A DNA stretch of 64,000 nucleotides from Moniliella sp. 'wahieum' (GCA_003971905.1 RSEE01000048.1:124001-188000); one strand, 5' to 3'; shown: positions 8,320-63,514, counted from the stretch's first letter. Numbers and translations are program-made. The notes: generated by a model from the sequence alone, not told the origin.

Positions 8320-10013
8320 TCAAACCTGAAAAGGACTGAGGGTACCGACAGAGAAGCGAGTTTTTACGCGTGCAAATTGGGGAACAGAAATGGTGAGGTA
8401 GAGTTGTCTGGGACATGAGTGGCGTGAGGTGGGCTCGTAGACAAGAGGGGCTCGTCCAAACCAACGGGAAGATCCGTAGAGAACGTGACGAGCCCAGCAG
8501 GGTAAGATGCCGAGAACTGGGATTGGATAGGTAGGGTCTTCAGGCTGGACAAGGGGAAATGCTGGTCCGACTGGTCCGTCGAAGATAGCCAATGGAGAAA
8601 AGGATCTGGAAAGATGGAGTCCGTAAAAGGGGACGGGAATGGCTTGGTAGGTGGCAATCCGTGCCAAGACTCGAGTAAGGTCTCCGTTCTCCACCGACCA
8701 GTCGGAGAGAACCGGATTGACGGCGGGGGTCCATGAAGTAACGGAAATTGGGCTGGACAAAGATCCACTGTTATCGACCCCGGAAACGCTCGTGGAAAAG
8801 GTGCTGTTTAGTGATTCGAAGGGCGACGGGACATCCGAGAATGATCCAACAGGGTCCGACAGAGAAATACTGTATGCGTTCGCTTCCACCTCGTAACAAC
8901 TTCCTTTGGACCCAATTACTTGGGGCGTGCACGGAAGCAATGCCATCGGTTGACCAACCCTGGGAATGATGAGTGGCTTGGTAGTAGGGGTACTATGCGC
9001 TTGGAAAGGCAACCCAAAAGGAGGGAATGGATTCGTAAACGTGGGACGGGAGAAGGAGGTGTCTTAATTGCCGGAGGAGGCGGAAAAAGCCAGGCAAGGA
9101 GTGACGGCCATCAGCATACCGAGGAGAATGAAGCCGCGCAGGGGATGACAGTGACAGCGTAGTTGGAGTGCCTGAGTCAATTGTGGTAGGAAAAGTACGG
9201 CGAGCAGAGCGGCGGAGGCTTGTAGAAAATTTGATTGAGGGAGGGAGCGAACCAGAACGGCGCAAATGAACAGTGGAAGCGGGCTCATAGCTGTGAGGGG
9301 CCGTATTAAAGGGAGTAGGGGCCGAAGCATTATGTACGGAGGAGAGTAGTGCGCAGGGCCACTCTCTCGACGGGCGGCAAACTGAATCTTGGTAGCAGGG
9401 GCGGAATGAGGGAAGGGATAGGGGTTTCCACCCAATAAGTCACAAAGTACATGTCCCGAACTTATTGCGTCCACACTAGAGGGCCGTGTCAGGATCGGGT
9501 CCAAGAAGCAATGACGACGCAAGGCGTAAATGCTCCGACTGTTCTCCACAGCACGGCGCCTCGGGCGATACGTGTAGTTCTGCAAAAGCTTTGGTAAGTA
9601 TATTATGGGGATTTTATCGAGGATCAAAAAGATCATGAACACACGGGATAACGTTGCCGATGAAGGGACCGTGCCTTTTCAGCCTTGCGGGCATACTGAT
9701 CCTTCACGCTCTGTGGCTCATTCTTCCACAACACCGAGATCTCGCGCGACATTTCGGCTTGACGATGTCTACTGCTCATAGTTCCTTTTCCCTCAGCCTG
9801 AAGAGAAAAGCGACGCTTAAGTTCTTGACTCTTGTCGGACCGGTACAAGATCCAAGCATTGGGTGGGCGCGGGGCCCAACCATTATTTTCTTCCGAGCCG
9901 GCTGGAGGGGTGGGATGAGACGGGGCCCTGACGATGGTCGGGTGGGTCCCCTGTACGGGCGAACGATCAATTTGGCATGAAAACGGTTGTTGGAGCTCTT
10001 CCGGCATGGTCAT
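8320..10013 (-). CDS. HMG-box transcription factor (MATA_HMG/SOX-TCF type)
   Basis: APRPPNAWILYRSDK...QAEMSREISVLWKNEPQSVKDQYARKAEKARSLHRQRYP|NYTYRPRRR across a gtgtgt...ttgcag intron (about 9581-9644). Ser/Pro-rich frameshifted C-terminus; 3' end approximate. Confidence 0.9.
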
Positions 10014-10385
10014 TGTGCAAAATGGAGGACCATAGAGGTGCTAGAGGGAGGGGCCAGATGGAAACAAAGGTTAGCATATGCGCTTCAAAGCTTGGTCTTA
10101 GAGAGAGCACACGGACTGCGTGGAGAGGTATGGGGTACTGGAGAATTTGACGGAGGAAAGTATTGCAGGATACCGAGCACACAGTGGTTGTGGAAGCGCT
10201 GGGGGACGAGAACCGGGTGAAGTTGGAAGAACGGGTGGAGGGAGGCGTGCGGTGCGGCCTTCAGTGTAAAGAAGGCCAACGTACCGGTTTTAAAAGAGCG
10301 ATGCGAAATGGAGAAGAAAGACGATGATGGGAGACAGATGAGAAAGAGCAGAAGGGGAGTTAGTTGGGCGGATATTAAGAACGAT

Positions 10386-20789: not shown

Positions 20790-22686
20790 CTAGAGGCAGG
20801 ATCCGTTTCCGCCCCTAGTGGCGATCCCGGTGCCTTTCGAGCAGCGGGTGAAGGCGCGTACTTTGACGAGGGGTGTGAGCTGAGCAGCTGGAACAGAATG
20901 TTCGTTGTTCTGTGCCCCACCGCGGTTTGTGGACTGGCCAGAATCCACTCCTCCAGGCGAAAGAGGGGGTTGGGGTCCCAGGCGAGACGGACGAGGGGGG
21001 CTGGAAGGTAATTTAGGCGACAAGGAAGATAGGGCCGTGGGTTTTCCGGGCGGCAACACGCGGATGGAGGAGCCAATCCAGGAGGATGGCCTGCTCGTCG
21101 CGGCCGAACTGAGAGGGGAACCAGGACCGGAGGAGGGTACGCGGAGGCGAGTGCGCGGGGAGGATCGAAAAGAAGGATGCCCGATGCTGGTGGGAGTGAA
21201 GGGACCCGGGTCAGAAGTGTAGGTGACAGTCAAGTTTTTCAAGTTGGGCAATATAGCGCGCAGATCTAGAACGGCCATGCCGAGCTTTCGCAGTAAGTTC
21301 TCAATATCCTTCTCGAGGAGGTACGGCATAGTCAAACCGATACCGCTCGTGCTCCCCTTCAAGGTAGAGTGGGAATACCCTGGGGCCTAGTTGAGGGGAG
21401 ATGTCATCGTGCACCACCCCCCAGCTTCCAGCTTGTGCCATATCGTAGTGCAGAGGGATCCCCAAGTACATGGACAGGAGCGTGACCAATTGCACTACCA
21501 GCGCCAAGCCTGAAGCCATATTGTTCGACTCATAACGCGCGCTAGCAGTCGCTCTGGGTCAAGGGGATCGGAGGAGGTACGCGATGGGGCGGGGGGCGGG
21601 GGCGTCGTCATTGGAAGGTGCAACAGGGACAGGTAAGAGGATACCGTGGATGCTGAATAGTAAAGCCGATGCATCGACAGGTACGATGGGATAGACTTCT
21701 TCCAGTTTTGAACGAGCAATTGGCGCCGCAGATGGATGTGGTGTTCAATTTCTTCTAGCTGAACCCGTTGGGCATCCACTTTTTGTTGGTATCCTGTCGC
21801 TTCTCGCTCTACGCCCAGTTTGAGCAATTTCTCCCGGGCCTGGGTTAATCGGTTCCTCCGAGCGGCTAGGTCCGCCTGGCGAGAAGCTACCTTGTAACGC
21901 AACAGGGCCAGATGTGACTGGGAGGATCGGGAGAGTGACTCCGCTCGACGCACCATGCACCCTCTCCACCGTTCCTCCGATGGGGGCTCCCATCGGGGTA
22001 GATTGTCCCTTCGATTTGCGCGAGCCTCGTCCTGGTTAGATTGGCCTGAAGAACATCCTTCCCATCAGAAAGAGCAGGGCGAGGACCGGTGCAGGAAGAT
22101 GGGGGACTGGACGACTCGTTAAAAGCCCGCTCCACGTCGTGCTTGGCCAGAACGGCCTGTTCGATTGCCGCATCGCGCTCGAGCGTGGCCAATTGCCACT
22201 CGGCCTGGATCGAGAGGAGTTTCTTCAGTTCCTCGATCGTGTACGTCTCTGCCTCTGCGCGCCGTGGTGGAGGGAGCAGCAGGCGGAAGTGGATCGAGCT
22301 GGGACAGATCGGCCGACGAGCGCGCAGACATCCGGCCTTGGCTCGTGAGCGGAAGCACCGATGCGGCTGGTGCTCCTGATGACGACAGGGCGGTGATGGC
22401 GATGGCGATGGCGATGGCGAGGCCGATGGTGGCGGGGGGTGGTCGGCTTCAAGAGGCATGAGTAGCCAGACAAGGGGCGGCTGCTCCTCGATTGAGCGGC
22501 AGCGGCGCAAGAAGGGCGCCGGTGCGGATGGGGCTGATGCAGGGTTGGTTGTCGCGGGCCAGGCCAGGCGCTGTCTGAGAGATACAGCTGTGACAGTAGC
22601 GACAGCCTCTGCTGGTTAGACTGACGCATGGCTGCTACGGGGGTCAGCAGGTCCCGCCTGTTCCAGCCAGGCCAAATTCCGCTCAT
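20790..22686 (-). CDS. Vps38/UVRAG (Atg14-family) PI3K complex subunit
   Basis: Coiled-coil segments followed by ALVVQLVTLLSMYLGIPLHY and RVFPLYLEG..RYRFDYAV(Y)LLEKDIENLLRKLGMAVLDLRAILPNLKNL, typical of Vps38/UVRAG. Confidence 0.8.
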
Positions 22687-22892
22687 TGCCGGAAACGTTC
22701 ATTTTCTGCGGGCTACCCTGGTCGAACCCCTCCTAAGAGTCCCACACAGTGTGCTCACTGATATATATAACTGATAGCTCTCTTGCGCCTGCCCGCTCTT
22801 GCATCGATCGCTCAGAACATCACCCTCACAGGAAATGCCCCTCACTCGGGACGGGGTTACACGAGAACATGGAATGCAGAAGATGAGGTCGT

Positions 22893-23817
22893 TTAGTAGC
22901 AGATGCGGTAAGAGCAGTATCGCCCAGCCGTCTCGGACGCTGATAAAAAAGAACGGACGGATCAGTATTACTGACTGATCCAACAACTTTCCAGCAGGGT
23001 GAAGGACACGTACGCCGAATGATCCGAAACTACTTGCCCCCGGGCCAGGCCAAAGTAGCGAGCAACCGGGTCCGTGGGAAGGATACGGGGAAGCTGATTT
23101 TCCTTCAATCGGCTGAGAAACAGAAGTGGGGCGGGTGCATTAACCGGTGAGCGATTATTCCAAGATCAGGGAGGGTATGGGACTACTAGCGGGCAAGCAG
23201 CCTCCTTCTCCATGGAGTCATAACTTCGTGGGTAGGCACAAGTGTATGGGGTGATGTTGACCAGGAGCGAGGCCTCGTCGAAGTCCTCGAGGACAAACTG
23301 GTGCTGCATCCCTTCCAGCACTTCTTCGCTATCGGGGTCATTTGGACCAAATAATGATTCCCCGGTGGATGTGTTGCTGCTCCAAAGCACCAATGAATTG
23401 GCGCATCGTCTTGATACCCACATTCGGTTCGTCAGAGTAAAATACATAGATCTTCTACATCCCCGAGCCGTCGCCAGTCGCGTGGAGCGGATCATTTTTA
23501 TCTGCCTCGGCAAAAAGTGAAGGGCTTTCCGGTCCACGTTGCCGCTGGGGGCAAATGCGGCTTGGAATTCTGCAAGCGAAATGTTGATCTCCTCGTCCGA
23601 GACTTGGTAGCCCTACCAAAGCCGGAAAAAAGCTGGAGTCAGCAGCCCATTTCGGTCACGCATACCTATCTCCCTCTGGTATCCCCCCCCCCCCGCCCAC
23701 ACACACCTCAGCGCATGCAAATAGCACACAATGAAAAGAACATACCCGATCCCGGACAAGCTCGTGGATGGTGCGGTTGACGCGCCAGAGACGGGCAACC
23801 TGCTTTTCCTCTTCCAT
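22893..23817 (-). CDS. RPB5: RNA polymerase I/II/III shared subunit Rpb5 (RPABC1)
   Basis: [40 protein letters not shown]...VGIKTMR...[11 protein letters not shown]...[22 protein letters not shown]...[14 protein letters not shown]. Confidence 0.96.
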
Positions 23818-24384
23818 GATGTGGTGGATGATGAGACCTGGAGTCCTGATGGTCCTCGAGGCGATGCAATCGCATGGTGGTGTGGTGGTGGTCTAAACCA
23901 ACAGCAACGCCTAGAGAGGAACAACAAGCAGCGAGCACCAGGGGATAAGCTGCAGAACAAGGAAAAACAAGAGAGAGAGAAGAGAAAACACGAACCCAGG
24001 CTTGAGGAGGAACTGAAGGGACATTGGCCAAAGCATGAGCCACCCGATGGCTCAACATATGAAGGACAAGTGGCTCGCGTTGGGCTCTTAATCTTTAAGC
24101 TTTCCCAGGCAATTTTGCCACCTCATTAATCCTTCCGCCCCTGTTGAAAACTGCGAGGGAGGGATTCGTCACACTTACATCACGTGAGGCAACATTTCAG
24201 CAAGCATTTCTCGAGCGTGGAACGAGGTCAATCGATTGAAACTGAGCATACGCGCGGGTCGCGCCAGGACGCGCCTCGGTTGATTAACTTCAAAAAGGCT
24301 TCGAAGTTTGAAGGCTCTTGAGGCTCAGCAATTCTCTATGCGCTCAACGCTCAACCACCAACCGCAACACATTGCTTTCGGATT

Positions 24385-25979: not shown

Positions 25980-28900
25980 ATGTCTGACACCAACTACGGC
26001 GTCCCCCCGCCTCCGTCCACGGCACCCCGCCGCTCTCACCTCGCACCTTCGCCATGGGTGCCACCCCGCCCAAGCGGCCTGGCTATGCCCAGTCCCAAGG
26101 CACCCTCTCGCCTCGCCCTGTCTCCTTCGCCTCTCGCCCGACGGGATATGGGCAGGCGGCCATGGGCGCCGATCTGTCCTATCATTCCGAATCCTTCCCC
26201 AACAGCTCGGGCCGTGTGCCCTTCACTCCGTCGTCCGCCGGTTCTCGCCCCGGCTCCATCTCTGGTATGGGCGAGTACTTTGACCCGGTCCAAGCCGGCC
26301 TCTCGGCCCGGCACGAGGTTGGCACGCGCCGTGGGTCGGATGCTTCCCACGCCTCGCTGCCTCGTTCGCGCATGGCCAAATTTGGTTCGATGGGGGGCGG
26401 TACTTCAAGCTACGGCACCGGTGCCGCTCCAACTCTCGCCGACCTGGTCGCCTTGGAGCGCTCGCAGCAAGTTTCTTTGTCGAATGGCCCAGGGGGCCAT
26501 GGAATCAATCCTGGCTCCCCGGCCATGTCCCACGCCTCGTCCCCCGGTGTGGGCAATGGGATCGGTATCAATGCCACTGGCCATTGGCCCGCCAGCCCCA
26601 CCCTTGGTGGCCGTCCCCTCTCTACTGGTGCAGGGGCCGGGGGTGGATTGGTTCGTCCTGCGAGCCCTGGCCTTGGTTTTCGTTCCGCCAGTCCAACCAT
26701 GAGCGGCTTCCGTCCGGCTAGTCCTGGCCTGGGCGGTTTCCGTCCCGCTAGTCCTGGCACGGGCGGCTTCCGTCCTGCTAGCCCTCGCCCGGGTGGCTTC
26801 CGCTCTGCGAGTCCTAGCGTGAGCGGATTCCGTCCTGCAAGCCAGCCCTTGGGGCATCAAACCCTGGTCTTAACACGACCAACAGTGGTCCATGATCGCA
26901 GCTGAAGCAGCTCCCGGCGGGTTTGTTGCTCCTACTGGCCCGCAGGGATCGTCGGATCACCACGTCTTTATCTTTGGATCGCAAGGACCGGCCCGCTTTG
27001 CCCAAGTTCTCCTTGCAATGGTCGAAAATGCCTCCCTTGGTCCTGCTCTTACAACTGGCACCAACGGGTATGCCAACGGCCATGGCCATGCCGGAAAAGC
27101 TCAGCCAAGCCATCCTTTGATCGGGTCGTTGGCGCACGTCGCTACATTCTTTCAGCTAGCTCAGGAAGCACTTCAGGAGCAGATTGAATCGATCCAACAG
27201 CCCGCCGATTTAACTGCCATGCCCAACATTAGTGCGTTCAAGAACCTAAAGACGCTCTGTCAGTATCACATTGAACTGGCTACGAGAATGCTGTTGTCAA
27301 TGGGGTTCTCCTTGTCATCCTTCAAGTCGCCCAAACTCTTAATGCCACAACCAAGTGGGAAGAAGAGGCCACAGCACAAGCTTCCCTCGACGGTACCAGT
27401 TCTGTTCTGACGCCGGCACCCTTTTTCCGGCCCGAGACCCATTTTGTCGGCTTCTGCACTGGGAACATCACAGCCATTCTGTTGGCCGCTGCCGATGGGG
27501 GCATCTGGTCCATCATCCGTCAGGGGATTACGGCACTTAAGGTTACTTTTTGGATCTCACTTCGCTCGGCCCTGGCTGCTGTAAGCTACCAACGTGAGCA
27601 AGCTCAACATGGTGCCCACGAACATGCACATGTTACCACTACTGCTGCCAAAGGGGCACCTGTAATCACTGGTATTGCTGCCTCCGCCTCATCTGCGAGC
27701 AGAGAAACAACTCCTGCATGGAGTTACGCGATCACGTCCGCATCGCTCGACATGGCCATGAAGTGGATTGGAGACTTCAATGACCGTATGGTACGTTTCT
27801 CTTATCCTATAAAACAGCATATTCTGACCATCTTTCTTATACAGGCCTCTGCAGAAGACGACAAACTTGTCGTGACAGCTGTCACCGCCAACAGCGTGTC
27901 AATTGGTGGTCCTCCTAAACGGCTTGAGACGTTTAGCGAAACCTTCCACGCGATTGCCCAAGACGATACTGCGGCCGCGGCTCGCTGCCTTCCTCTCAAA
28001 ATTCTCTCCTTACCATCACATGGCTCAATTGGCCACCGCTGTGAATGCCGTTAAAACCGACTTGGCCGCGCTTGACATCTCCATCTTGGGAGGACACCAA
28101 TCGGCCCTGGCCCGCAAGGTGTATAACATTCTTGACGGCAACTTGCTGAGCACGCGTAATTTGTCCGACGCCCAACTCATCGACTTCCTCGTTCAATCTA
28201 ACTTGAGCGACGTGAACCGCTTCGACTTGGTCACCGACAACTTGGCCTCCGAGCTCGCCACATTGGTTGGCCGTGGGCACGCCACTAGGATTGAGTTACA
28301 CTGTACTGCGCCCAGTGTGGGACTCGCCAACTCGATTCAAGCCGCGGTCCACAAACTCTTGCCTGAACATGATGGTCCAGCATCGGCATGGCATGCGCCC
28401 CATCAGTCCCACTCTCAAGCTCACCCCGACATTATTGTGCAAGACTTGAGCGCCACAGAGAAGGTTGGATCAATGGCGTCAACGGCCTATGTTACAACCG
28501 AGATGAGGAAGTGGCTATTGTGGCGATGACTTGCCGGTTGCCTGGGATGTGAACTCGCCCGAGGATTCTGGGCAGCCCTAAGGCACGCCGATGCACAGTG
28601 GAGGAGATCCCCAAACACCTATTTGACATCAACAACTACTATGGCGATGGGGTTAATCAAACACTGGCACGGCACATGCATCCTTTGAAGGAGGGTGTTA
28701 CTACCACCATGGATCTTCGCATCTGTAACATCTCACCCAAAGAGGCTGACCAGATGGACCCACAACACCGTTTGGCCATTCTGTGCGCCTACGAGGCACT
28801 CGAGAAGGCCGGGTACGCGCCCAACGCCACGCAAAGTTACGATTCTCGACGTATTGCGTATTTCGCTTGTGCTACGTCAGACGACTATCGCGAAAACGTG

Positions 28901-31900
28901 ATGGGCGGGCAGGGCATTGGGAGCTACTTTGTCTCAGGTTGTATCCGCGCCTTTATCCCAGGCATGCCCTCGTTCAGCTTCAAGTTTGAAGGGCCATCCA
29001 ATTCCTACGACACGGGCGAGACTAGTTCATTGGTCACGCTTGAGCACGCGGTACACGCGTTGAAGGCTGGCCAGTGCGACGTGGCTCTCGTTGGTGGGGT
29101 CAACGTGATGACCTCCCCCCACATGTTCATCGGACTCGATGCAGATGGGTTCCTGTCCCATTCGGAGCAGCAGGGAATGTTCTCTGCTGACCACCAGGGC
29201 GTAGTGCGAGGCGACGCCGCTGTTGTTCTATGTCTCAAACGTTTAGCGATGCTATTGCCGAGGGTGATGAGGTATGTCGACTCTACCTTCCCCATGACCA
29301 CTCCATTTACTGACCTTTTTGTCCTATGGGTATAGGTTCTGGCTACGTTACCAACGAGCCTGCACCGCACGCTTAGTTCCAAGATGAGCGCGGACGAGCA
29401 GGAAGTTGGCTTGCGCCAAGCCCTTTCGCACATTGGCATTTCACCTGACACTGTCGCATGTCGAGGCCAGTGGGTATTATGATGCACACGTCGAGGCGGC
29501 CGAGTTTCAAGCTGTCGAGGCCGTGTTTGGTCTCAGCGCAGATGAAACTCGGGCTGTAACCGTAGGAAGTCCCAAGGCCAACTTTGGCGCCTCGGAGGCA
29601 GCCATGGGCATGGTGCAAGTGATGAAAGCTGTCCTCATGCTCCAGCATGACCGTGTGCCTGCCCAGCTTCCTGTTCAAGACCTCAACTCCACCATTCGCT
29701 CCATTCACGATCAAGGCCGGGTTGTTCTTCCCTTTTCAGAGCGTACGTTGTCTAACGTGGGGCCCGAATCAGTGGAGCAACGCAAGACGATCGTCCATGG
29801 CCTGCTCAAGCGGGTACACAAGCCGTCACGCTCGTGACTGCTCCGCCTCGCCTTGCTCGTCCCGGTCCGTGTATCGACCAACGTCAAAGCCATATGTTTG
29901 CTATGTCAGCCAAGTCGCCCGAGTCATTGGAGATGATGCGGACTGCGTTGTCCAACTATGTGACAGAGTCAACGGACCTCCTGCGCCTGAGCTACACCCT
30001 GTCCGCCCGTCGCAACCAACATCCATTCCGTATCGCCTTCGCGGCTTCTTCTGCGACTGAAGTCAAGGCCAAACTTGCATCACTCCCATGGTGGAAATCA
30101 AAGCTCAGGGAAACGAGGTCAAGGAACCGTTGCTGTTTTTGTCTGGAGGCTTGCCCATGAACTATTGAGACGCTGGCCCAAAGCGACCCGGCCTACTCGT
30201 CTATGGTATCCGACCTTTCTAAGGTGGGCCAAAGTTTAGTGGGCCGCTTGCTCAATCGTCGCTTCCTCTAGCGGATTATTCGATGTTGATGGGCCTGGTG
30301 GGGGATATGACACTGGTGTCGATGATCCGCCACTGGGGAATCTCTCCTACCTTGATGGCGACCGGCTCGGGTGTATTGGCCGCACTGGTGGCCGCCGACG
30401 GTCTTTCTCCCTCCGAAGCAATGTTGGCTGGCATCTTGTCTCCCACGGTGGACCTTTTACGGACTGTTCTAACAAATTCCGGCACGCGCCCTCTCACGCT
30501 TTCGATTCAGCTTGTTGCAACAGGCAAGACGATCGGAGGTGACGGGAAGAGCATGGTCGCGGACCTGGTGGACGTTCTCATGGAGGAGATGATGGGAACA
30601 AGCGAAGCCACCCCTGTGTTCGGGCCGCAATGTGTTCTACTCGATATGAGCTGTGCCCCGCCCTGGCTTGCCCTGGCCACCTTTCTCGCTGATCTGCACA
30701 ACGCTGGGATCGAGGCGAATTCTGTCGAGGTGTATCGGCAGTACTTGCCCCAGCTCCGCTACCTTTCCGATCTTCCCACGTACCAGTTCAGCCTGACGCG
30801 GCACTGGATTGAATATACGGACCGCAACTTAATTCGTGATTATGACATGTTCGCTACGGAGATGGGTTCAGCTATGGGAGATTCGAGGAGTTTGACACGA
30901 GGAGGCGCTCACTCCCCCTGTGTACCCCATGCTGGGCAGAGTGGTCAAGTTCGCATTCTCAGACGAAGGGTAGACCATGGGTTTGGCCTGTCGGATGTGG
31001 CGGTGTACGAGTCGAGTATTCAAGCGGAGCCCATGATCCGCTTCATTCAAGGTCACTTGGTCAATGGGACGCCTCTTGCGCCAGCCACGCTCTATGCCGA
31101 TCTGGTTATGGAGGCAGCAATCGACGTGTTTACTCGCACGGGTATGTGGAACCCGGACAAACTAACGCCCGAGCTGCAAGCCCTCGACATGGTCCGCCCC
31201 CTCACTGTGAGGGGCGAAGCGGACGATCCCACCGTTATGGTCATCCGCGTCACCCGGGACTTCCACTCAGACCGGGTGTTTATCGACGTCAATTCGCGAA
31301 CGCCCAAGGCGGGGGGTGGCTGGACGGACACGAGGCATGCCAGTGCTCATGTACGACTGGTTGACCCAGCGGTATGGAAGACCACTTGGGCGCGATTCAA
31401 CACTTTGATTCACTCTCGCTACCGTGCTGTGCGGGCCAACGAGAAGGCTGACATTATCGGAGCCAAGCTAGCCTACTCGGCCTTTGAGTCGGTCGTGTCC
31501 TACACCCCTGGATCGGGGTTCCGTGGCATGCGGTCGATCGCGTTGCTTGAATCTACGTACGAGGCAGCAAGCAAGGTGGTCATGTCACCCCAAGCGCCTG
31601 CGGATGTGTTCCATATCAACCCGTGCTACATTGATTCCCTGGGGCAAATCACAGGCTTCATCTGCAACTCGCTGGCGGACCAGGCGCACGTGTTTATTGC
31701 AGATGGGGTAGGGATCATGCGCTTCACCAAGGCGTTGGCCGTCTCAGCTGAGAAGGGGGAAACGTTTGAGGTGCACTGTCAGATGGCTCCAACGAGCGAC
31801 GCCCAGACCGAGTTCACCGGCGATGCATTTTTCATGCGCGCCTCAGATTCGGCCATTGTGGGTGAGATGGTGGGGTGCGGTACAAGAAGGTGCCAGCCAA

Positions 31901-33893
31901 GGTGTTGCAGACCCTCCTCCCACCGCCGGGGGCTAAGGCCAAGAAGAGTAAGCCTAAGCGCCAGCTGCGGCTGCTGTGGCTGCACCCGCGGCTAGCTCTG
32001 CGCGGTGGCCACTGCCCCGGGGGGTGCGAGCGCAGCGGGGATCAGTGCGGTTGACACGTGTTCTCCAACATTATGGGCGTCATCCAAAGCGAGCTGGGCC
32101 TCGATTCGGCCATTGATGGATCCGCTTCGTTTGCCGATCTTGGATTGGACTCGCTTATGGCCATCGTCATCCTGGGCGGCTTGACGGACGTTCCGGTAGA
32201 GTTACCGCCGAGTCTCTTCCTCGATTGTCTTACTCCCAATGACTTGCGCACCTATCTCTCCGAGCCATGGGCGACGCTGGTCAGGTTGTGGTGGGCGGCG
32301 GGCTACGGGGACCGCCTCAGAGCCGGCGATCGTCATTTCGTCTGCCTCGCCGACAGGTGCGGGTCCTGGGCTACAGTCAGGCGGCAGCAAAACAGAGGAG
32401 GTGGTGGGCAAAATACGCCAAGTGATTACCACCGAGCTGGGTGTGGAGGATTCCGAGTTGACCGACTCGTCGGACCTAGCGGCGATGGGCCTCGACTCGC
32501 TCATGGCACTTCTCATCCTGGGCAATCTGGATTCGGAGCTGGACGTGGAGCTGGCCCCCGACTTGTTCATTACTTGCAACTCGATTAGCGATCTTCGTGC
32601 CCACTTTTCCAAGCTCCTCAAAGATTCTGCCCCGCCTGCACCTGCCCTGCCCCTGCCCCTGCACCTGCATCCGCACCTGCGCCAGCACCTGTCTCTGCTG
32701 TTGCACCCTCATCCGTGGCCAGCCCGCCGGCGGCAATGGTGATGCCAAGCGCTCCAGCTCCCGCAGTGGCACAGCAGCTCTTCCGACGATGTCTATGCCG
32801 GCGCCCCCCTCCCGGTCGTCTCCACATCGGTTCCCACTTCGACCATGATGCCGCAGATGGCCCGCGCGTTGGGAACGCCCCAGGGTACCGGCCCCCTTGA
32901 CGGCGCCTGCCCCCACCCCCCTCCTCCCCAGCCCGGCCGCGAAAGTACACGCCTCCTCATCCAATCCCCACCCCTCGCGAAGCATCGGCGGTGCCATTCG
33001 GAGTCGGTTCTGCCGCCCAGACGAGCACGACGACAGAGTTGGATACGGACCGTCCCCCGCGTGCTGGGGAGACAGCTGAACACTTGGCCGAGATTGAAGG
33101 CATTCGGATTCTGCCACCCCAACTGCTGTTCAAGAGTGACAAGCCCGATGCCCACAACATCTTCCTTGCTCCTGACGGGAGTGGTGTTGGTGCGGCCTAT
33201 GCCCAGCTAGGCGGCGGGCTGGGTTCGTGCAACATTTATGGCTCAACTCTCCGTTTGTGACCAACACGAAGAAGTGGACGGGCGGGGTGCGCAAGATTGC
33301 GCTAGCCTACCTCAAGTCAATTCGTACGATCCAGCCACAAGGACCTTACTACATCGGGGGCTGGTCCTTTGGCGGCGTGGCGGCGTTTGAGATGGCGACA
33401 TTGCTGGGAGGGTCATCGGATCCGTCGGACGAGGTCGGGGTGTTGCTGCTGCTGATTGACTCGCCACCGCCGTGCCGCTACCCACCTCTTCCGATGTCGA
33501 TGGTGGAGTGGATCACCACGTCGGACATGTGCCAACGCCGCCGACGCTGTCGGACCGTCTCTTGGCCCACTTCCAAGCGACGGTGGACAACTTGGCAGTG
33601 TATGGTGTGCCGCCGCCCATCTCCTCCTCGCTCTTGCGTCGGCCCAACCGCGTGGTCCACATTGCCGCCCGGCGCGGAGTGAAGTTGAGCGAGACGGATG
33701 TGCAACCAGACTTGGGCCATGAGACGATCAACTGGCTCGTCAGTCCGCGCCAGGGCTTGGGCAGCAATGGCTGGGACTACATCTGCCTGACAACATCATC
33801 GAGTGCAAAGAAGTCGATTCCAACCACTTTACCCTGGTCTACCCCCCGACCAGCCTCATGCTCGCCAAGCTCATTTCGCTCGCATGCCAGTAA
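25980..33893 (+). CDS. Non-reducing type I polyketide synthase: disordered N-terminus-SAT-KS(inactive)-AT(degenerate)-PT-ACP-ACP-TE
   Basis: SAT VFIFGSQ, GFCTG, PYHH. KS ISPKEADQMDPQHRL, GPSNSYDTGETSSL. Linker LPTYQF. PT IQGHLVNG...YIDSLGQITGF. ACPs GLDSLM x2. TE APDGSG, GGWSFGG, DSNHF. Introns 27791-27844 and 29272-29335. TATA at about 25868. Confidence 0.92.
26651..26846 (+). repeat. Coding tandem repeat, about 30 bp, encoding GFR[P/S]ASPxxx x7
   Basis: VRPASPGLGFRSASPTMSGFRPASPGLGGFRPASPGTGGFRPASPRPGGFRSASPSVSGFRPAS; codons vary synonymously between units. Confidence 0.9.
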
Positions 33894-47260: not shown

Positions 47261-48292
47261 GACTGTGCTAGTACCAGGGCGTAGCGATCCATGAATTGTG
47301 AACGGAATCATCAATCTGCTGTGTGACATATGTGCTAAATGGCTTCCAGCGTGCAAGGGCGAAAGGGCGAATGAAGTCAGGGGCGGGCACAAGGGTGTGC
47401 GTGCCCCTCGCAGGGGGTGGCCGGTGGACAGAGTGAGCGGCTGAGATCTGAGCGATGCATGGCACGGCCCTGCACTGCTCTGGTGTGACGATCACAGCGT
47501 GGAGGCGAGGCTTGACGACGGCAGCAGGGCGCCAGTATGGGGCGCAACCCCACACCTTGGTCTGGGCCAGCGCCTGCCTGCACGGGGCGCAGGAGGGCGC
47601 AGGGGCAAGGAGAAGCTGTGCGCATCTCAGAGGCAATTCAGTATGCAGGGCCAAGGCTGCGCAGGCCGGAGGCGTGGCGAGGCAGACCCTGGCAGACCCA
47701 GCGTGGCAAGCCAGGCGCAGGATCAGTGTGGAGCGTACGTACTCTGTGTGGGGCGGTTCAGTGCGCCCACCGTTCCCGTTCACTACAGCAGGTGAGGACG
47801 TTGAGCATGTGCACGCATTCTGGTATGACGTCGAGGTGCTCACATGAGGGCCTGCTGGGGCTTGGTGTGGGAGATGTGGGAAACGTGAGGACTGAGACGA
47901 GTTCGGAGAGCATTGTCGCATGTGCATGTCATTAACCACGGGAATAGCGTTTGCGGCCAAGCGGACAGAATGGCCGACTGTTCACACCGTTCAGATCTCG
48001 GACTCTCGGCCGTCGAGATCCAAGCGAGTGCCCCAGCACAGCCCCCACAGCGCCCACCCGTTCGCTGCGGCTCTGCCTTCGCTTGCTGGGCGTTCGGCCC
48101 CCTTCCCACCCCGGTACCCACCGTCCCCACTGCTGTCGTCGGCCAGCAGCCACCGGCCACCCTGCTCCGGTTCGGTGCATGCACCCATCATCCATCTGCG
48201 CATCAGCCCTCTCCCCCCCCCGCCCTTCGCCCACCACAACGCCTGCTGCCCTCGGCGCCGCCTGCCCCCTCCTCCCCACCGTCGCCGGCGCG

Positions 48293-51200
48293 ATGGCTGC
48301 CACCGCCGACAACCCCACCCTGCTGCGCGCCCAGCTGCTCAACCTCCGCTGCGCGCCCACCAGCCCCCTCCTCAGCCCCGCCCTCTGGCCCTCGCCCTCG
48401 CTCTCGCCCTTGCCCTCGCCTTCGCCCTCACCCCGCCCTCACCCTCGCCCTCGCCCTTGCCCTCGGCCCGAGGCACGACGAGCATGGCAGCCCAGCCACG
48501 AATCCTTTGTCTCTGCCCTTGCCCTCACCCCCACCCCCACCCCAAGCACCGCCCCTGCATCCGCCCATGGCCGTCGCTTCCTCGCACCATCCCCCTCCCT
48601 CAGGCGCACCCCGAGCCCCCTCAGCCCCGCCTTACACCCCAGCAGCCACCCCTCCCCAGCCACCCCGCTCTCCGCCCAGTCGGACACTGGCCATGATGGC
48701 CTGCACACATGTCCCCTCCCCCTCCCTCCTCCGCTGCCCGGCTCAAGCCCCATTGCCGCACGCTATGCATACAACATCCCTGCCATCTTCCCCCCGGCCC
48801 CCTCCTCCGCCGACGCTATCCCCGCAACCGCCCCGGTGCAGACAGCCTCCACGCCCGCACCCGCACCCGCACCCGTGGCCCCGCTCCCCTTCGTCCTCGT
48901 CCCGGGCACAGTTCGCCTCACGTGGCTGAGCAGCCCCAGCCCGTCCGTCAAAACAGCCCGCTCTCGGTCACCTCCACGCGCCAGCATCGCCCGCATCGTG
49001 CCAAGGCCCACGGACCGCGTTTGCACAAACACAAAAAGCAGGCCACTCCATCTATACCAGTGCCTAATGCGACGGAGAAAGTGAGCAAGCAGCAACCTGC
49101 CGCAACTTTTCCTTCTGCCCCTACCGCCACAGCCGCGAGCTCCACTGCCCCCATCCCCACGTCAGAACATGGGCGCAAGGGAGTCGGTGCACGCTCCGTC
49201 TCAATGCCCAGTTCGCCTGCAGCGTGCACGTCGGAATTCCCGACCGATCATGAGGGGACAAGGAAAAACTGGGAACATCATCCGTGCCTTTACGCGCCCA
49301 ACAAAGGCCGCCTCTTCCACCTCCCTTGTAACTGCAGACACCGAAGCCACCGTTCCCCGTACGTTTTCTCGAGTTTGGAGCTATTGACCAACCAGTTCAC
49401 TAACATGATTGCTTCAGGTGCGGCCGATTTGCCGTCAGATCTGCTACCAACGGCCACTGGGTCGACCAGTGCGCCAGGGCTGTTGGCCAGCAAAAGAGAG
49501 GACCCTATACAGAAGACAGCTTCCCCCCCAAAGGCAATCCCATGCGCCGACGCGCCAAGTGCCTTCAAGAGCAATGACCATGGACCGAATCCTGGACCCA
49601 GCCGCCTGGGCCGCGTTGCGACTCACCTGATCAGGCGGACCCATGCGACCCCAATTGAAACAGGCAAGCAAGGTCATCTGTCCCATCCCGGGCTGAGACG
49701 GGGGTCCCTGCACCGGAGCTCAAGTGTGTGGACACTCCACGTCCCCCATCCTCGCACCAGCCCCCACCCACGGCGCGGTCAGGTCTGCGTACTTCGCCTA
49801 TGAGCGGAGGGGCGCGACCAAAGTGGGGGACCCCCCGGCGGCGGAGGAGCGTCTACTCCCTCCTCGACTTTACCCGTTCCAACGTGGATGAATCAGGTGG
49901 GACTAAGACAGCGAATGATCCAGAGCCGGCGCAGGAGCACCAGGGTCCCACGGGAGAACCAATTCCCCCGAACCCCGATTTCCACGCCATCTCGTACTCG
50001 GCCTCTCCGCATGCGCACACCCTCCCTTGCTCGCTCGCCAACCGGGGTGTGCAAGCGCTCAGCAGTGCCTTGACCCGAGCTGCCTCCACTACACCATCTG
50101 GCAAGCGCTCGGCCAAGACGGAGAAGAAGAGGCGGCCGAAGATGCCCCCTCTTCGTTTGTCGTCACCTCCGCCCACCGTGTCCCTCGGCCTATGCCTGCC
50201 ACCCCTCAACGCCCAGTCGCAATCTAAGGCGCAGTCTTCCCCTACTGTCTACGTCGCCCTCAGGTGCAGATCCGAAACGCCCGCAGTCTGCCACTGCACT
50301 ACATGCATATACCATCAAGCCACCCGTGTCACACCCTCCCAATCCGCTGGCCGCCCCTTCGTCCGATTTCTCGTGGATCTCTGGGCCGAACTGCAACAGG
50401 CACGGTTAGATGGTCCGAGTGTCTAGGATTGAGCTCAATCGAGCCACTTCCCCCTGTGTTCCCATCGGTCGATGGGCAACCGTCCGGATTGGATTCCTCC
50501 CTCTTCTCTCGCTGGTCTCCTGAAAACAAGGGGGTTCTGGAAAGTGGAACGCGGGACGGCAGGCTGCCGCCGCCGCCGGCTCCTGTCAAAGCACCGTTGA
50601 ATCCGTATATCAGCTGGAGCACCAGGCCGGGGCCGCCCTACACTGCTCCCGCTGTGCCCAACACCCCTCTCCCATGCGCAGGGAAGGGCAGGTCGTTGCC
50701 TACCTCCCACTTTGGCCACCCTCGATCTCAGCCAAATCTCGGACGACCAGGCCTTTTTGGCGCTGTTGGAACGATTGAGAAACTTGCACCGTGCCGCTGC
50801 CGCCGCGGGCACGCTACCTCCCCCTGCTTCCAGTGGTACTCCGGCTCGGACAGGATCAACGGGAAGCCAAACCAGCATGTCTCTTCCACCACAGCTTCCA
50901 CTGCCTGCTCCAACTTGTCGCTTGAACCCAATCGTACGCTGTCCAACTCAACCCAGGCCACGGCCTCTTCCTCCTCGACCGGTGGAGCATCGGGTGCAAC
51001 CAAGCTCATGCCGGCCATCCCACCCAAGTATCTCGTCGGTTGCACCCGAGTACCAACGTCGCCGACCCCCCACTCCTCCCCCCCCGGACCACCGACACGC
51101 CGCTCGAGCAGCATGAGCACGTCTTCCCCGTCTGCCATGACTTCTCCCACACCCCCTTCTTGCTCATGTGGGCCAGGCGTCGGGCCAAAACGAGCACGGT

Positions 51201-52170
51201 GGCCCCCAGGGGGAGTATTTGTCGACGATACAGCGTGGCAGAAAGAAGTTCGGGCCCTCTTTGTGCTCCGCGAGTTGGTGGCCAGAACGCTCCTATTCTC
51301 GTCACTTGGACGCGCTCTTGCTCGCTGTCAAGGAAATCGAAGCACGTTCGCAACCGGCCCCCCTCCCCGTCCATCTCCGTTCGCTCGCCGACGTGCTTCC
51401 CATGTTCCTCTCCATCTCACGGACCGTCTCAGACCACCTTCGAGCCGACTTGACAGCCTCTGGCGTGGCTGCTGCGTTTTCGGCTGCGGCACCAGCGATG
51501 GAGGCTACGTTTGTCGCTTGGTCCTTTGCCGTTCCCGATATTATGGCCGGCCTGCGTGCCGTCGAGCATGGCTCGCACGATGGGGAGCCCTCGACCGTGT
51601 CCTCTCCCCTTGTTGCATCCTCCAAGGAGGGAAAGGAAGGGCATGATTCAACCGACATGGGTCCTCCAAGGTCCGTATGGCGTCGTACCGCATCGGCTTG
51701 GTCCGCCCGGCCCCCCTGGCGACGGCCGAAGGAAGAGACTCCCCCTTGGGCGCGCACTTGTCGCCCGACGACGCTGAACCCTTCGTAGGCCGGCCCGCGT
51801 TGGACTTGGTACGCCCTCGACTGGGCCACAACAGTCCGCCTCGCTCTCGCCCACTCCGGTCTGACCCCGGCGCCGGCCCCTTCAACACCTAGCTTGGAGG
51901 ACAAATGTCTCTCTGCCCTCGACATTGTCATCATGCCGTACGTCTCCCTCCTCCCCCCCCCCCCCCCGTTCCGATTCCGAACTTGCACGAATGATTAACA
52001 CTTTTTTTTCTGCCAATAGGACCCAGCGGTTGCCTCGCTACATCCTTCTCCTTCGCGACTTGCACAAGGCCACGCCACCGGGCTCCTTGGCTTCCGAGCA
52101 TGTCGCGCACGCATTGGCCATTGTCGAGCGACTGGCAGCGTTGAGCGACTTGGCCTCGCTCACTTACTAG
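48293..52170 (+). CDS. RhoGEF (Dbl-homology) protein with long Pro/Ser-rich N-terminus
   Basis: KEVRALFVLRELVA(T)ERSYSRHLDALL; MEATFVAWSFAV; LSALDIVIMP|TQRLPRYILLLRDLHKATPP...ALAIVERLA. Stop at 52170. Start uncertain. Confidence 0.8.
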
Positions 52171-59941: not shown

Positions 59942-61870
59942 TCACTTGGACGATCGGTTGGGCTCGCGACGGTCCAGCCCATCCCCTCGGCCACCGTAGC
60001 GGGAGGGGCGGCCAAACTCACGTGGGCGGTCCGACCGTGGTGGTCGTCGAGACACGTCAGTCTCTCGGCCAGGGACACGATCGGAGCGGTGACGCTCCCA
60101 ACGACTGGTCCCCTCGTCACGGCCCTTCCGCGGATGGTACGATCCATGGCGAGAGTCGTGGCGTCGGTGTGAGTCGGGAGGTGGGCGCGACGGAGCACTG
60201 CGGCCCCAATTCATGCCCGAACGATCCGCATACCCGCGCTCCTCATTACGACGCATCATCTCCATGTCCTCATCTTGCCGCACTTGGCGCGCCCACGCGT
60301 GCCGATTTTTCTCTTCCCTCGCCCTGGACCGAATGGGGTCGTTGATCACCCCAGCCGTACCATCGCGCGTGACATCCAAACCGTCGTTGTCTGCCTCACC
60401 CCGAGGATCGAGCACCGCATAGTCACCTGCTTGGAGCCCGTCCTGAGCAGCGGTGTTTTGGTATCTTGGAATTTATGCCCCAAAAGCTCGGCCCAGCTTG
60501 CCTTGCCACCCTTGAAGCCTTTGGTGCCTGACTCTGTATCTGAAGAAGAACCATACTCACGCATGTCGGGATCGATCTCCACATCATCTTCGTCATCTTC
60601 GTCACGTTTGGTCGGTGTTCCCGAGTCGGAACGCTCAGCGTGCTTAAGCTTGTGCGGAAGAATTGAGACGGGCCAAATGTCAACGTCTTTCGGCTTGGAC
60701 TTGCTGTACTGCGCCTTTTGTTGATCCAGCCAGGAACGGGCAGTATCAGTGGACGCTTTGAGTTTGCCCTTCTTATCCTCGACCGCCTTGGGGGGGCTAT
60801 GTGTCGCAGGGCGCCCCGCTTTCGTTCCGAGAAGCGCCGCTTCCATACTTTGAAGGTCTTGATCCGGCAGAGCCGGGGAAGTTTGAGATGGAGGCGTAGG
60901 CGACCGTCGTGGCACCGGGGAATCCAACTGATCTGAACGCGCGGAAACGGGTTCGGAAGGTGCAGAGGAAGGAGGGCGAGTGTCTTTGGACGGTTCCGGT
61001 GCCTCTACCAAACCAGGGGCGGCCAATTTACTTTTGTCCAACTTGATCGCTCCCGTGTCCAACGTAGGGGCAGCCTTGGTCCTTTTCCCCTTGACAGGGA
61101 GCGGCGACGCGTCCTCTTCCTCATCGCCTCCAAAACTCAACAGAACTTTACGCTTCTTGGTTTGAGCTTTGAGCTGAGCTTGCTCTTCGGCTTTGCGCTG
61201 AGCCTTGCGGCCTTGGCCTTGGCCCGTGCTTTCTCTTGTTCGGCCCGCTTGACTGTTTGGCTGATACGGGGGACAATGTCATCGAACGGATTGTCCACCA
61301 CTTCAACCTTGTCGATCCGCGGTGCCTTGTCCTTGGGGATCGGGTGGCCTTCCTCGTCGGTCTCCACCCCCTCGAGCAAAGCAAGCAGGGTGTACATACT
61401 GGCCCCGGCTACTCGGCCAAAGAGGGTGTGCTTTCCTTGCAGTTCGGGACTCGGGCCAGTGTAACAAAAAACTGGGATTGGTTCGTGTTGGGCGCGTTGG
61501 CATTGGCCATGCCCAGCATACCACGCTTGTTGAACCTCAGGCGGGGATGGAACTCGTCGGGGAAGTAGCCCTCGTCCGAGTGAGACAGGTCGCGACCGTC
61601 GGGCGCAGACCCGTCGGGAAGAAGCGGGGCATAAATGGAGGTGCCACCGCGACCGGTTCCGGTGGGGTCGCCAATCTGGGCAATAAAGTCGGGCACCAAG
61701 CGATGGAAGGCAAGCCCATCGTAGTAGCCCTCGAGACTGAGCTGGATCAGATTGCGGCACGCCTTGGGCGTCTCCTTGCTCCACAGGTCAATATCGATAG
61801 AGCCCTGGGTAGTATGGAAGCGCAGTCGTCCCAAAGGAGGAGGCTCCGCCTGCAGCGGATCGAAATCCAT
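59942..61870 (-). CDS. CWC27: Spliceosomal cyclophilin Cwc27
   Basis: EPPPLGRLRFHTTQGSIDIDLWSKETPKACRNLIQLSLEGYYD..FHRLVPDFIAQIGDPTGTGRGG; DEFHPRLRFNKRG; ELQGKHTLFGRV; NPFDDIVPR; LSFG; DPR; Arg/Asp-rich tail. Confidence 0.93.
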
Positions 61871-62229
61871 GCCGCGAGAGCTGCACAGACGAGGGGGTGG
61901 CGCGAGCCGACGTCAGACGCTGGACGGTGTGAGCAGCCGACGAGGTTGTTGGCGTCGCCCCCATCTCAGCAACAAGTCGAGGCCTAGGTTTCAGTGTTTC
62001 ATTTCAGAAATTTCACGCTTGATCTAAGTTCCCATTTCCAACTGCGTCAGGCCTCACCTCAGGCCGGCCAAGTGCAGGTCCTTATACTCGCTGGCTGTGC
62101 CAACATACTGTTTGTCTATGGCAGGGAAACAATGGAATGGGTTATGCAGATCCATGATCATGGAAAGAACAGACACACAGAGATGAACTAGATGAGTGGA
62201 AATCAGTGCAGGCAAACAAGGCCAACAAG

Positions 62230-63514
62230 TCAGTCAAACGTAATCTTGGTCCCTTGGCTGCCCTCAGCAATTGCCCCCGACTGCTTAGCCACTGCCGATG
62301 CTACCGTTGGAGGATTGGAGGGGTTGTCGGTTCGGCCGGGCCTCCTCCGAATCCGACTTATCGTCATCCCATCGCACACGCTTGTTTTGGCTCTTGACTG
62401 GCGTTTCAGCTTCCTCCTGGGCTTTCGCGAGGCGCTGGCGCCGCTCCTCAACCATCCGCATCCGGCGATCAAACATGATCTTTTCCGACGTAGTCATCTC
62501 CCGTGCGGCGCCTTCCATGGGCGGAAGCAGAGATTCGATGGTCTGCTCTTGTTCATCCGGAGGGGGGACACTGAAAGGACGCCGGAGTAGACTGCCATGC
62601 AGCGTAAGCATGTGCTTGGCGACGGTCATGCTCACGATAGTGAACGTCAACTTGCCGTCTGCGCCGCCAAGGCGCGAGAGGTCGTCCTTGTTCCGCCAGT
62701 AGCCAAGGGAATGAGGTGCATCTCCTCTTCATCCTGGTCAAAGGGCTGCTCCGCGGCAGTGTCATTCTCATCCTGCTCAGGCGCCTCCGATTCGTCATGG
62801 ATAAACTCCCAACGAGTGAGGTCAATGTGCTGCGAGCTGATCGACGCGTTGAACAAGCCATCGAGCAACAGCGACACATGCGATGGCGACGACAAGATGA
62901 TCTTCCCCTCCACCTTCATGCCTATCCTCGGGCTCCACACTAGACATCCGACTTGGATGGGGACCAATCCGAACGCGCCATCGGCCTCGATCCGGCCGGT
63001 GGGACGCTGGAAGGACTTGGGGGTGGCGTGGTGGGTAACAAGAACACCTTCAAGCTCAGTACGTACCTGAAAACTCCCGCGTTAGTCGCTCAGATCATCA
63101 AGACAAAGGGGGAGTGGGATCAGAGGGAAAAAAGCAAAACGTACTGGCAAGAGCATCGTGTCGAACAGCTCGGCCACCGCTTGGGTTGGGTCGGCTGCAA
63201 AGACGGGGGGATAGCCATGTGAAGGGTAGGGTACATTTTGCGGTAGCATGACACTGCCCCTGAGGTCTCGTCCGAGTCGACATCGTCAAGCGGGGGCTGG
63301 TCGGAGGCACGGGGGCGGCGACTGCTCTCTTCAGAGTGGGAATGGACTTGGACTTGGAATGGGACTTGGACTTGTGGGTCTTGCTGCTGCTGTGCTTGTC
63401 GCTGGAGCGGGGCTTGGTGTGCTTGTCTGATTTTCCTTCGCTGGTGCGGGGCTTTTTGGACTTGCGCTCGGCGGGCGAGGGATTCTTGCGCTTAGATGGC
63501 GCGTCTGAAGACAT
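62230..63514 (-). CDS. RPA43: RNA polymerase I subunit A43
   Basis: Lys-rich N-terminus; YVLSLKGVLVTH; CLVWSPRIGMKVEGKIILSSPSHVSLLLDGLFNASI; FTIVSMTVAKHMLTLHGSL; basic C-tail. Confidence 0.88.

Follow-up and report, generated by a model that had tools for sequence, protein, structure and literature searches.

The stretch of Moniliella sp. 'wahieum' DNA analysed here (GCA_003971905.1, RSEE01000048.1:124001-188000; 64,000 nucleotides, referred to below as the window and numbered from its first base) carries on its plus strand a gene that resembles a fungal non-reducing polyketide synthase (NR-PKS). A preliminary description had read this gene as an NR-PKS with a dead ketosynthase (KS) and acyltransferase (AT) but an intact starter-unit acyltransferase (SAT), product template (PT) domain, pair of acyl carrier proteins (ACPs) and thioesterase (TE), and had proposed that it works together with a second, separate PKS. 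The PKS pieces, found between ~26.9 and 33.9 kb, sit in shifting reading frames, and can be read as one protein only after ~26-28 single-base frame corrections and the removal of one intron. For the analysis we wrote a protein-guided DNA aligner that permits introns, skips of one or two bases, and stop codons. With this aligner, residues 10-2029 of the 2030 residues of P0002, a protein of Tilletiaria anomala, could be aligned over 26964-33890. PKS homology begins at 26964; the likely start codon is the ATG at 26892, and the stop codon is the TAA at 33891-33893. The gene start given in the preliminary description, 25980, therefore did not hold, since homology to P0002 starts only at 26964. The coordinates of the gene and its domains are collected in Table 1.

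The KS domain has lost its entire catalytic triad. The Cys is replaced by Glu (GAG, 29018-29020, within DTGETSS at 29009-29029), the first His by Ser (AGT, 29469-29471, within EASGYYD at 29463-29483) and the second His by Ala (GCC, 29589-29591, within KANFGA at 29574-29591). These replacements had been noted in the preliminary description, and proved exact at each codon. They are confirmed by alignment to PKSs in the Protein Data Bank (PDB): DTACSSS of CTB1 (8cg6/6fij, E 6e-40) pairs with DTGETSS, and EAHGTGT and KSNIGH of DEBS module 5 (2hg4) pair with EASGYYD and KANFGA, respectively. The NSF..GGN gatekeeper loop near the end of the KS is also altered.

The AT region gave no match to Pfam Acyl_transf_1, and no PDB sequence match even at an E-value of 1. 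The position of the GHSxG serine is occupied by Gly (30364-30366, reading ATGSGV). A family profile of the AT remnant nevertheless matches real AT domains, in 130 of the 246 other proteins of the comparison set (i-E < 1e-5). In the active fungal NR-PKS P0007, the profile matches residues 920-1058 (E 1.5e-13) and 1196-1284 (E 7.4e-16), and the ~137 P0007 residues between the two matches correspond to only ~38 profile positions. The Pfam AT family scores 114 bits in P0007 and is not found in P0002, P0004 or P0023. Because the profile matches real ATs with the middle stretch shrunken, we conclude on sequence grounds that this region is a true AT remnant, without its nucleophile and without most of its middle part. 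The AT can thus be regarded as dead, as had been described, with the additional observation that most of the middle third of a normal AT is lacking.

The SAT, PT, ACP and TE domains keep their catalytic residues (Table 1). The PT His and Asp pair with the motifs GHLVDG and VDAITQ of the PksA PT (3hrq), and the PT region also gave weak matches to Pfam PKS_DH_N and PS-DH, slightly below the cut-offs. The TE is matched in the PDB by NocB (6ojc) and by the PksA TE (3ils, E 7.5e-8); a PDB sequence search with the SAT piece returned no match. All of the retained SAT, PT, ACP and TE residues listed in the preliminary description stood up to a codon check, to comparison with relatives and to alignment with the PksA PT and TE.

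Table 1. Features of the NR-PKS-like gene and of the open reading frame (ORF) upstream of it, in window coordinates
Feature	Coordinates	Strand	Evidence
NR-PKS-like carrier-half gene (probable): SAT, dead KS, AT remnant, PT, ACP, ACP, TE	26892..33893	+	ATG 26892, TAA 33891-33893, P0002 alignment, Pfam
SAT; Cys 27455-27457 (GFCTG) and His 28014-28016 (PYHH) kept	26964..28040	+	Pfam SAT E 8e-11
Dead ketosynthase (KS0)	28499..29807	+	Pfam ketoacyl-synt E 1.9e-45, Ketoacyl-synt_C E 2.8e-13
Only convincing spliceosomal intron, 64 bases, GTATGT...TATAG, within the KS	29272-29335	+	Protein-guided alignment to P0002
KS-AT linker	29810..30110	+	Pfam CurL-like_PKS_C, RhiE-like_linker
AT remnant, ~250 residues	30110..30860	+	Family profile matching real ATs
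PT; His 31054-31056 and Asp 31633-31635 kept	30973..31869	+	PksA PT 3hrq/3hrr E 6e-9
ACP1; Ser 32151-32153 in GLDSLM	32055..32264	+	Pfam PP-binding E 1e-10
ACP2; Ser 32497-32499 in GLDSLM	32410..32604	+	Pfam PP-binding E 6.3e-14
TE; Ser 33365-33367 (GWSFG), Asp 33458-33460 and His 33825-33827 (NHF) kept	33093..33890	+	Pfam Thioesterase E 4e-11
Pro/Ser/Gly-rich upstream ORF, in another frame than the PKS, not shown to be part of it	25988..26905	+	No Pfam family, no P0002 homology

Proteins of the same build were found in other fungi. A search with the exon covering the AT remnant and PT returned 8 proteins at E-values up to 0.001 among 7999 scored candidates, and the five best matches all lack a Pfam AT. 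Among the best 120 of 842 matches in the P0005 KS-region search, 27 are fungal SAT-containing proteins without a Pfam AT. When the KS exon was compared with 1.84 billion representatives, multi-module bacterial PKSs made up most of the best 150 matches, and P0197 was the one useful addition. We aligned the 27 SAT-containing relatives and P0003 with the conceptual window protein, the partial relatives P0001 and P0197, and three active NR-PKSs, and built a KS tree from 486 columns and 32 rows (FastTree, LG+gamma), leaving out the two partial sequences. Four clades can be distinguished. Clade A comprises the window protein, the Tilletiaria protein and P0003; clade B comprises proteins of Thecaphora, Pseudozyma flocculosa and Tilletia horrida together with P0009; clade C comprises 16 proteins of Ustilaginaceae (e.g. 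P0023, P0050 and P0070); and clade D comprises P0054, P0059 and P0084 of the chytrid Geranomyces, P0058 of Botryobasidium, P0080 of Violaceomyces and P0103 of Tilletia maclaganii. Clade A and the grouping of A with C each have support 1.0, A, B and C together have 0.995, and the AT-less family as a whole is separated from the three active outgroups with 0.998. The window protein is thus placed inside a clade of AT-less, triad-less NR-PKSs of Ustilaginomycotina.

Loss of the KS triad is common to all members of clades A, B and C. In 23 of 23 sequences, all of full or nearly full length, the Cys is replaced by Glu or Asp, the first His by Ser or Ala, and the second His by Ala; in both partial relatives the triad is likewise replaced wherever the position is covered. 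At the Cys position, clades A and C carry Glu and clade B carries Asp. Proteins of clade D keep the Cys and the first His, carry Tyr or Asp in place of the second His, and have also lost the AT serine. The catalytic residues of SAT, ACP and TE are kept in every aligned row that covers them, and clades A, B and D also retain the PT dyad. In clade C the PT His and Asp are lost as well and there is no Pfam PS-DH match, with SAT, ACP-ACP and TE intact, which suggests, as far as the alignment can tell, a stepwise loss of catalytic domains in such proteins. The AT-less design itself seems, from the composition of clade D, to be older and wider than the smuts, reaching the chytrids.

The dead KS is the best conserved part of these proteins. 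Across the 23 triad-less sequences, 85 of 402 KS columns (21%) are invariant, compared with 12/71 in ACP1, 34/232 in the TE, 10/69 in ACP2, 22/310 in the SAT, 5/177 in the AT remnant and 0/267 in the PT. Identity between the window protein and the Tilletiaria protein is 62% in the KS, 49% in the PT, 43% in the SAT and 31% in the AT remnant. In the KS tree, clade D and the Xylaria outgroups lie 1.0-1.3 from the root; the third outgroup, P0006, lies at 1.36, clade B at 1.3-1.4, and clades A and C at 1.7-2.0. Judged from these root-to-tip distances, there is a moderate speed-up and not free decay. Because 23 of 23 sequences share the triad loss and no other domain is as well conserved as the dead KS, we conclude from the alignment that this domain is maintained as a pseudo-enzyme and is not a product of decay. 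The argument of the preliminary description, that selective loss speaks against a pseudogene, is strengthened accordingly: what had been seen in one gene is a conserved trait of a family.

The reading frame of the gene requires separate consideration. Relative to P0002 there are 26 frame breaks over 26964-33890, all of a single base (21 missing and 5 extra bases), and relative to P0001, the closest relative (73% identity), there are 21 over 29384-33890; neither alignment contains an in-frame stop. The nearest relatives are unbroken ORFs, of 1501 residues for P0001 and 425 residues for P0197. P0197 aligns as far as 29277 and P0001 begins after the intron at 29272-29335. Two other candidate introns, at 27045-27104 (GC..AG, 60 bases, in frame) and at 32715-33092 (across which P0001 aligns), were discarded and are lineage-specific insertions or low-complexity linkers. 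In-frame stops at 28550, 30158 and 32846 in the first alignment were also discarded: the homologous residues lie in adjacent frames, and the rerun gave no stops.

Housekeeping genes in the window are broken in the same manner. In the spliceosomal cyclophilin CWC27, the PPIase domain passes from an ORF at 61412-61912 to one in another frame at 61140-61787 (both on the minus strand) at ~61440-61472, without an intron-sized gap, as judged from Pfam and from PDB entries 4r3f and 5z56. The OB domain of the RNA polymerase I subunit RPA43, also on the minus strand, matches its Pfam profile at positions 1-69 in 62650-63081 and at positions 72-115 in 62288-62728; the coordinates overlap, and again there is no intron-sized gap. 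These two cases point to errors of a single base in the assembly, about one in every few hundred bases. A neighbouring Ku ORF gave no scored homologue when one was sought for a frameshift count. Because CWC27 and RPA43 are broken likewise, we conclude that the frame breaks in the PKS gene are most likely assembly errors and not gene decay. The preliminary description had overlooked the broken frame, while allowing that a broken gene would speak against its proposal. At face value the ~26-28 breaks do so, but CWC27 and RPA43 are broken alike.

The window has 161 stop-to-stop ORFs of at least 130 amino acids; 25 of them overlap the PKS region, and Pfam was run on the other 136. The domains found around the gene are velvet, HMG box, zf-HIT, Rpb5, PAP2, Ku, CBM21, CTLH, cyclophilin and RPA43. 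The Rpb5 gene (22600-24200, minus strand) is present in at least three separate pieces, matching profile positions 1-21 and 22-58 of the N domain and 28-55 of the C domain, and these pieces are likely to reflect a mixture of an intron-sized gap and frame breaks. The region at 47889-51643 (plus strand) is GC-rich (0.63-0.67) with strongly negative GC skew, and contains long overlapping ORFs of 255-472 amino acids in changing frames without a Pfam family; it is probably a large low-complexity gene split by the same assembly errors. Pfam revealed no obvious tailoring gene in the 64-kb window. Velvet proteins regulate secondary metabolism in other fungi; a velvet-factor gene (809-1567) and an HMG-box gene (9636-10040), both on the minus strand, lie 17-26 kb upstream of the PKS gene, to which any link is hypothetical.

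The ORF at 25988-26905, which the span given in the preliminary description takes in, ends where the PKS gene starts. It contains a 30/60-base tandem repeat at 26675-26843, and has no Pfam family, no relatives in an atlas search and no homology to P0002. It could be an N-terminal extension that an assembly error has joined on, or else a gene of its own or a leader.

PKSs that act in pairs are known from the smut Ustilago maydis. Co-expression of pks3 (UMAG_04105) and pks4 (UMAG_04097) yields orsellinic acid, whereas neither is productive alone, and deletion of either gene abolishes all products (bioRxiv 10.1101/2019.12.28.889758). Pks3 is described there as having the build of an NR-PKS with an undetectable AT. 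In the part of that preprint covered here, the missing AT is the only defect named for Pks3, and neither 'active site' nor 'cysteine' occurs. A review states that Pks3 and Pks4 cooperate in the form of heterodimers (PMC10098057, covered in part). For a second pair, the adjacent Pks1 (UMAG_06414) and Pks2 (UMAG_06418) of teliospore melanin synthesis, it has been proposed that the two proteins form one complete synthase (PMC13208730). According to the same source, of which we likewise cover a part, homologues of pks1 and pks2 occur in 13 and 15, respectively, of 15 other Ustilaginaceae, and pks3-5 are confined to U. maydis 521. The preliminary description had mentioned such cooperating pairs from U. 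maydis as something that could lower the novelty of the window gene, and rightly so: cooperation rests on experiment for Pks3 and Pks4, and is proposed for Pks1 and Pks2.

Like Pks1/Pks2, the window gene belongs to the NR-PKSs of the smut lineage: clade C (16 Ustilaginaceae; SAT, dead KS, no AT, ACP-ACP, TE) is sister to the clade of the window protein with support 1.0. Because PMC13208730, in the part covered, finds only pks1/pks2-type PKS genes common to those species, clade C is most likely of the Pks1 or Pks2 type. The two clades differ in that clade C lacks the PT His and Asp, both of which the window protein keeps, and KS-triad loss is unmentioned in the covered part of PMC13208730. Pks3 with Pks4 is the experimentally shown case of a split fungal PKS with an AT-less member, Pks3. 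However, that cluster is reported, in the sources as covered, only from U. maydis 521, and the likeness to the window protein is one of AT absence. Literature searches, covering the literature in part, found no account of KS-triad loss in such proteins, so that the family-wide loss of the triad, the stepwise decay of domains and the existence of chytrid relatives may be new.

More distant parallels exist for a KS that does not condense. In type II PKSs, a KS-fold chain length factor (CLF, or KS-beta) without the catalytic Cys is the obligate partner of a live KS-alpha. The similarity lies in a Cys-less KS fold kept beside a live KS; the CLF, however, is small and separate and carries Gln at the Cys position, whereas here the KS0 lies inside a multidomain protein of 2,200 residues, carries Glu and has lost both His. 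The Gln that is the hallmark of a CLF is absent, the window protein having Glu and its relatives Glu or Asp, and a KS0/KS heterodimer is only putative for the window protein. Bacterial trans-AT PKSs offer another parallel, with AT-less modules, an AT acting in trans, and non-elongating KS0 domains that usually keep the Cys, have lost a His and still pass the chain on. They resemble the window protein in the AT-less design and the non-condensing KS, and in residue pattern they are closer to clade D. The preprint, as far as it is covered here, likewise draws a comparison with bacterial trans-AT PKSs (bioRxiv 10.1101/2019.12.28.889758). Finally, the window protein shares with canonical NR-PKSs such as PksA and CTB1 the order SAT-KS-AT-PT-ACP-TE and clear homology (to the CTB1 KS, the PksA PT and the PksA TE), with the AT reduced to a remnant, but it lacks the KS triad and the AT serine that define catalytic competence.

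Taken together, we consider it reasonably likely that this gene codes for the carrier half of an NR-PKS divided between two proteins, and it is probably a real and functional carrier half, of the type already described in U. maydis. By itself, such a protein would be unable to load malonate or to condense. A separate NR-PKS without an ACP would supply the AT and KS that load and extend the two ACPs of the carrier half, and the dead KS would serve as the contact surface to this partner. The KS0 may pair with the live KS of the partner, replacing the usual KS homodimer, or may self-dimerise and dock. The SAT, PT and TE of the carrier half itself may prime, cyclise and release, and the product is likely to be an aromatic pigment precursor, as for the teliospore melanin pair of smuts. 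A bolder version of this scheme, which we offer only tentatively and hold to be rather doubtful, is that the KS0 is a CLF-like 1:1 partner of the live KS of the ACP-less synthase; the two would be the first example, among iterative type I PKSs of fungi, of an obligate KS/KS0 heterodimer. It includes a stepwise order of loss: the AT and second His would have gone first, as in clade D with its chytrid members; clades A, B and C would then have lost the gatekeeper loop together with the Cys and the first His; and clade C would finally have lost the PT dyad.

Several observations weigh against a carrier half. The adjacent arrangement of the U. maydis pair is not repeated: no second PKS was found in the window, which extends 26 kb upstream and 30 kb downstream of the gene. 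Pfam detected no PKS domain in the 136 ORFs outside the gene, and tblastn with P0001 and P0002 over the window gave matches only at 26946-33890. The gene as assembled cannot be translated, and its breaks are assembly errors only in all likelihood. Any orthology to Pks1 or Pks2 is argued from taxonomy and from statements in PMC13208730, itself covered in part, and not from U. maydis sequence. In the literature covered, physical interaction of two such halves is not shown.

The absence of a nearby partner and the broken frame would both fit a pseudogene in Moniliella sp. 'wahieum': the family would be functional elsewhere but this copy decaying, and the 26 breaks relative to P0002 and the 21 relative to P0001 would be true mutations. 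We regard this as improbable. Every break is of a single base and no in-frame stop is left once the frame is corrected; the ordered domains are still 74-84% identical to P0001, and the linker 65%; all catalytic residues expected of the family are retained; and the same type of break occurs in CWC27 and RPA43, which are conserved housekeeping genes.

A gene that sits alone among housekeeping genes could encode a stand-alone, non-condensing enzyme whose SAT, ACPs and TE process an acyl group made elsewhere, with no dedicated KS-AT partner, and the family-wide retention of the SAT Cys and His, the ACP Ser and the TE Ser, Asp and His, even in clade C without its PT dyad, is in keeping with such an enzyme. 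However, this would leave unexplained why a dead KS is the most conserved domain, and the AT-less Pks3 of U. maydis yields no product alone but is productive with Pks4, according to the covered part of the preprint (bioRxiv 10.1101/2019.12.28.889758); we think a stand-alone role has only a slim chance of being correct. The strong conservation of the KS0 could instead reflect a remaining chemical role, CLF-like or decarboxylating (KSQ-like), in which the carboxylate at the Cys position serves priming or chain-length control. The replacement of the Cys is indeed non-random (Glu in clades A and C, Asp in clade B), and type II CLF and KSQ domains also carry a characteristic residue there. That residue is Gln, though, and not Glu or Asp, and the KS0 has neither of the histidines on which malonyl decarboxylation depends and an altered gatekeeper loop, so that a chemical role appears unlikely. 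We therefore retain the carrier half of a split NR-PKS as the favoured reading of the gene.

The textbook fungal iterative PKS is a self-contained homodimer. Smut pairs indicate that one synthase can be split over two large proteins, and the window gene with its aligned relatives reveals what a carrier half retains and what it loses. With conservation highest in the dead KS, a concrete, testable idea emerges of how two such halves find each other. Genome mining that counts KS, AT and ACP domains would miscall genes of this kind as complete synthases, or would throw out both halves as broken.

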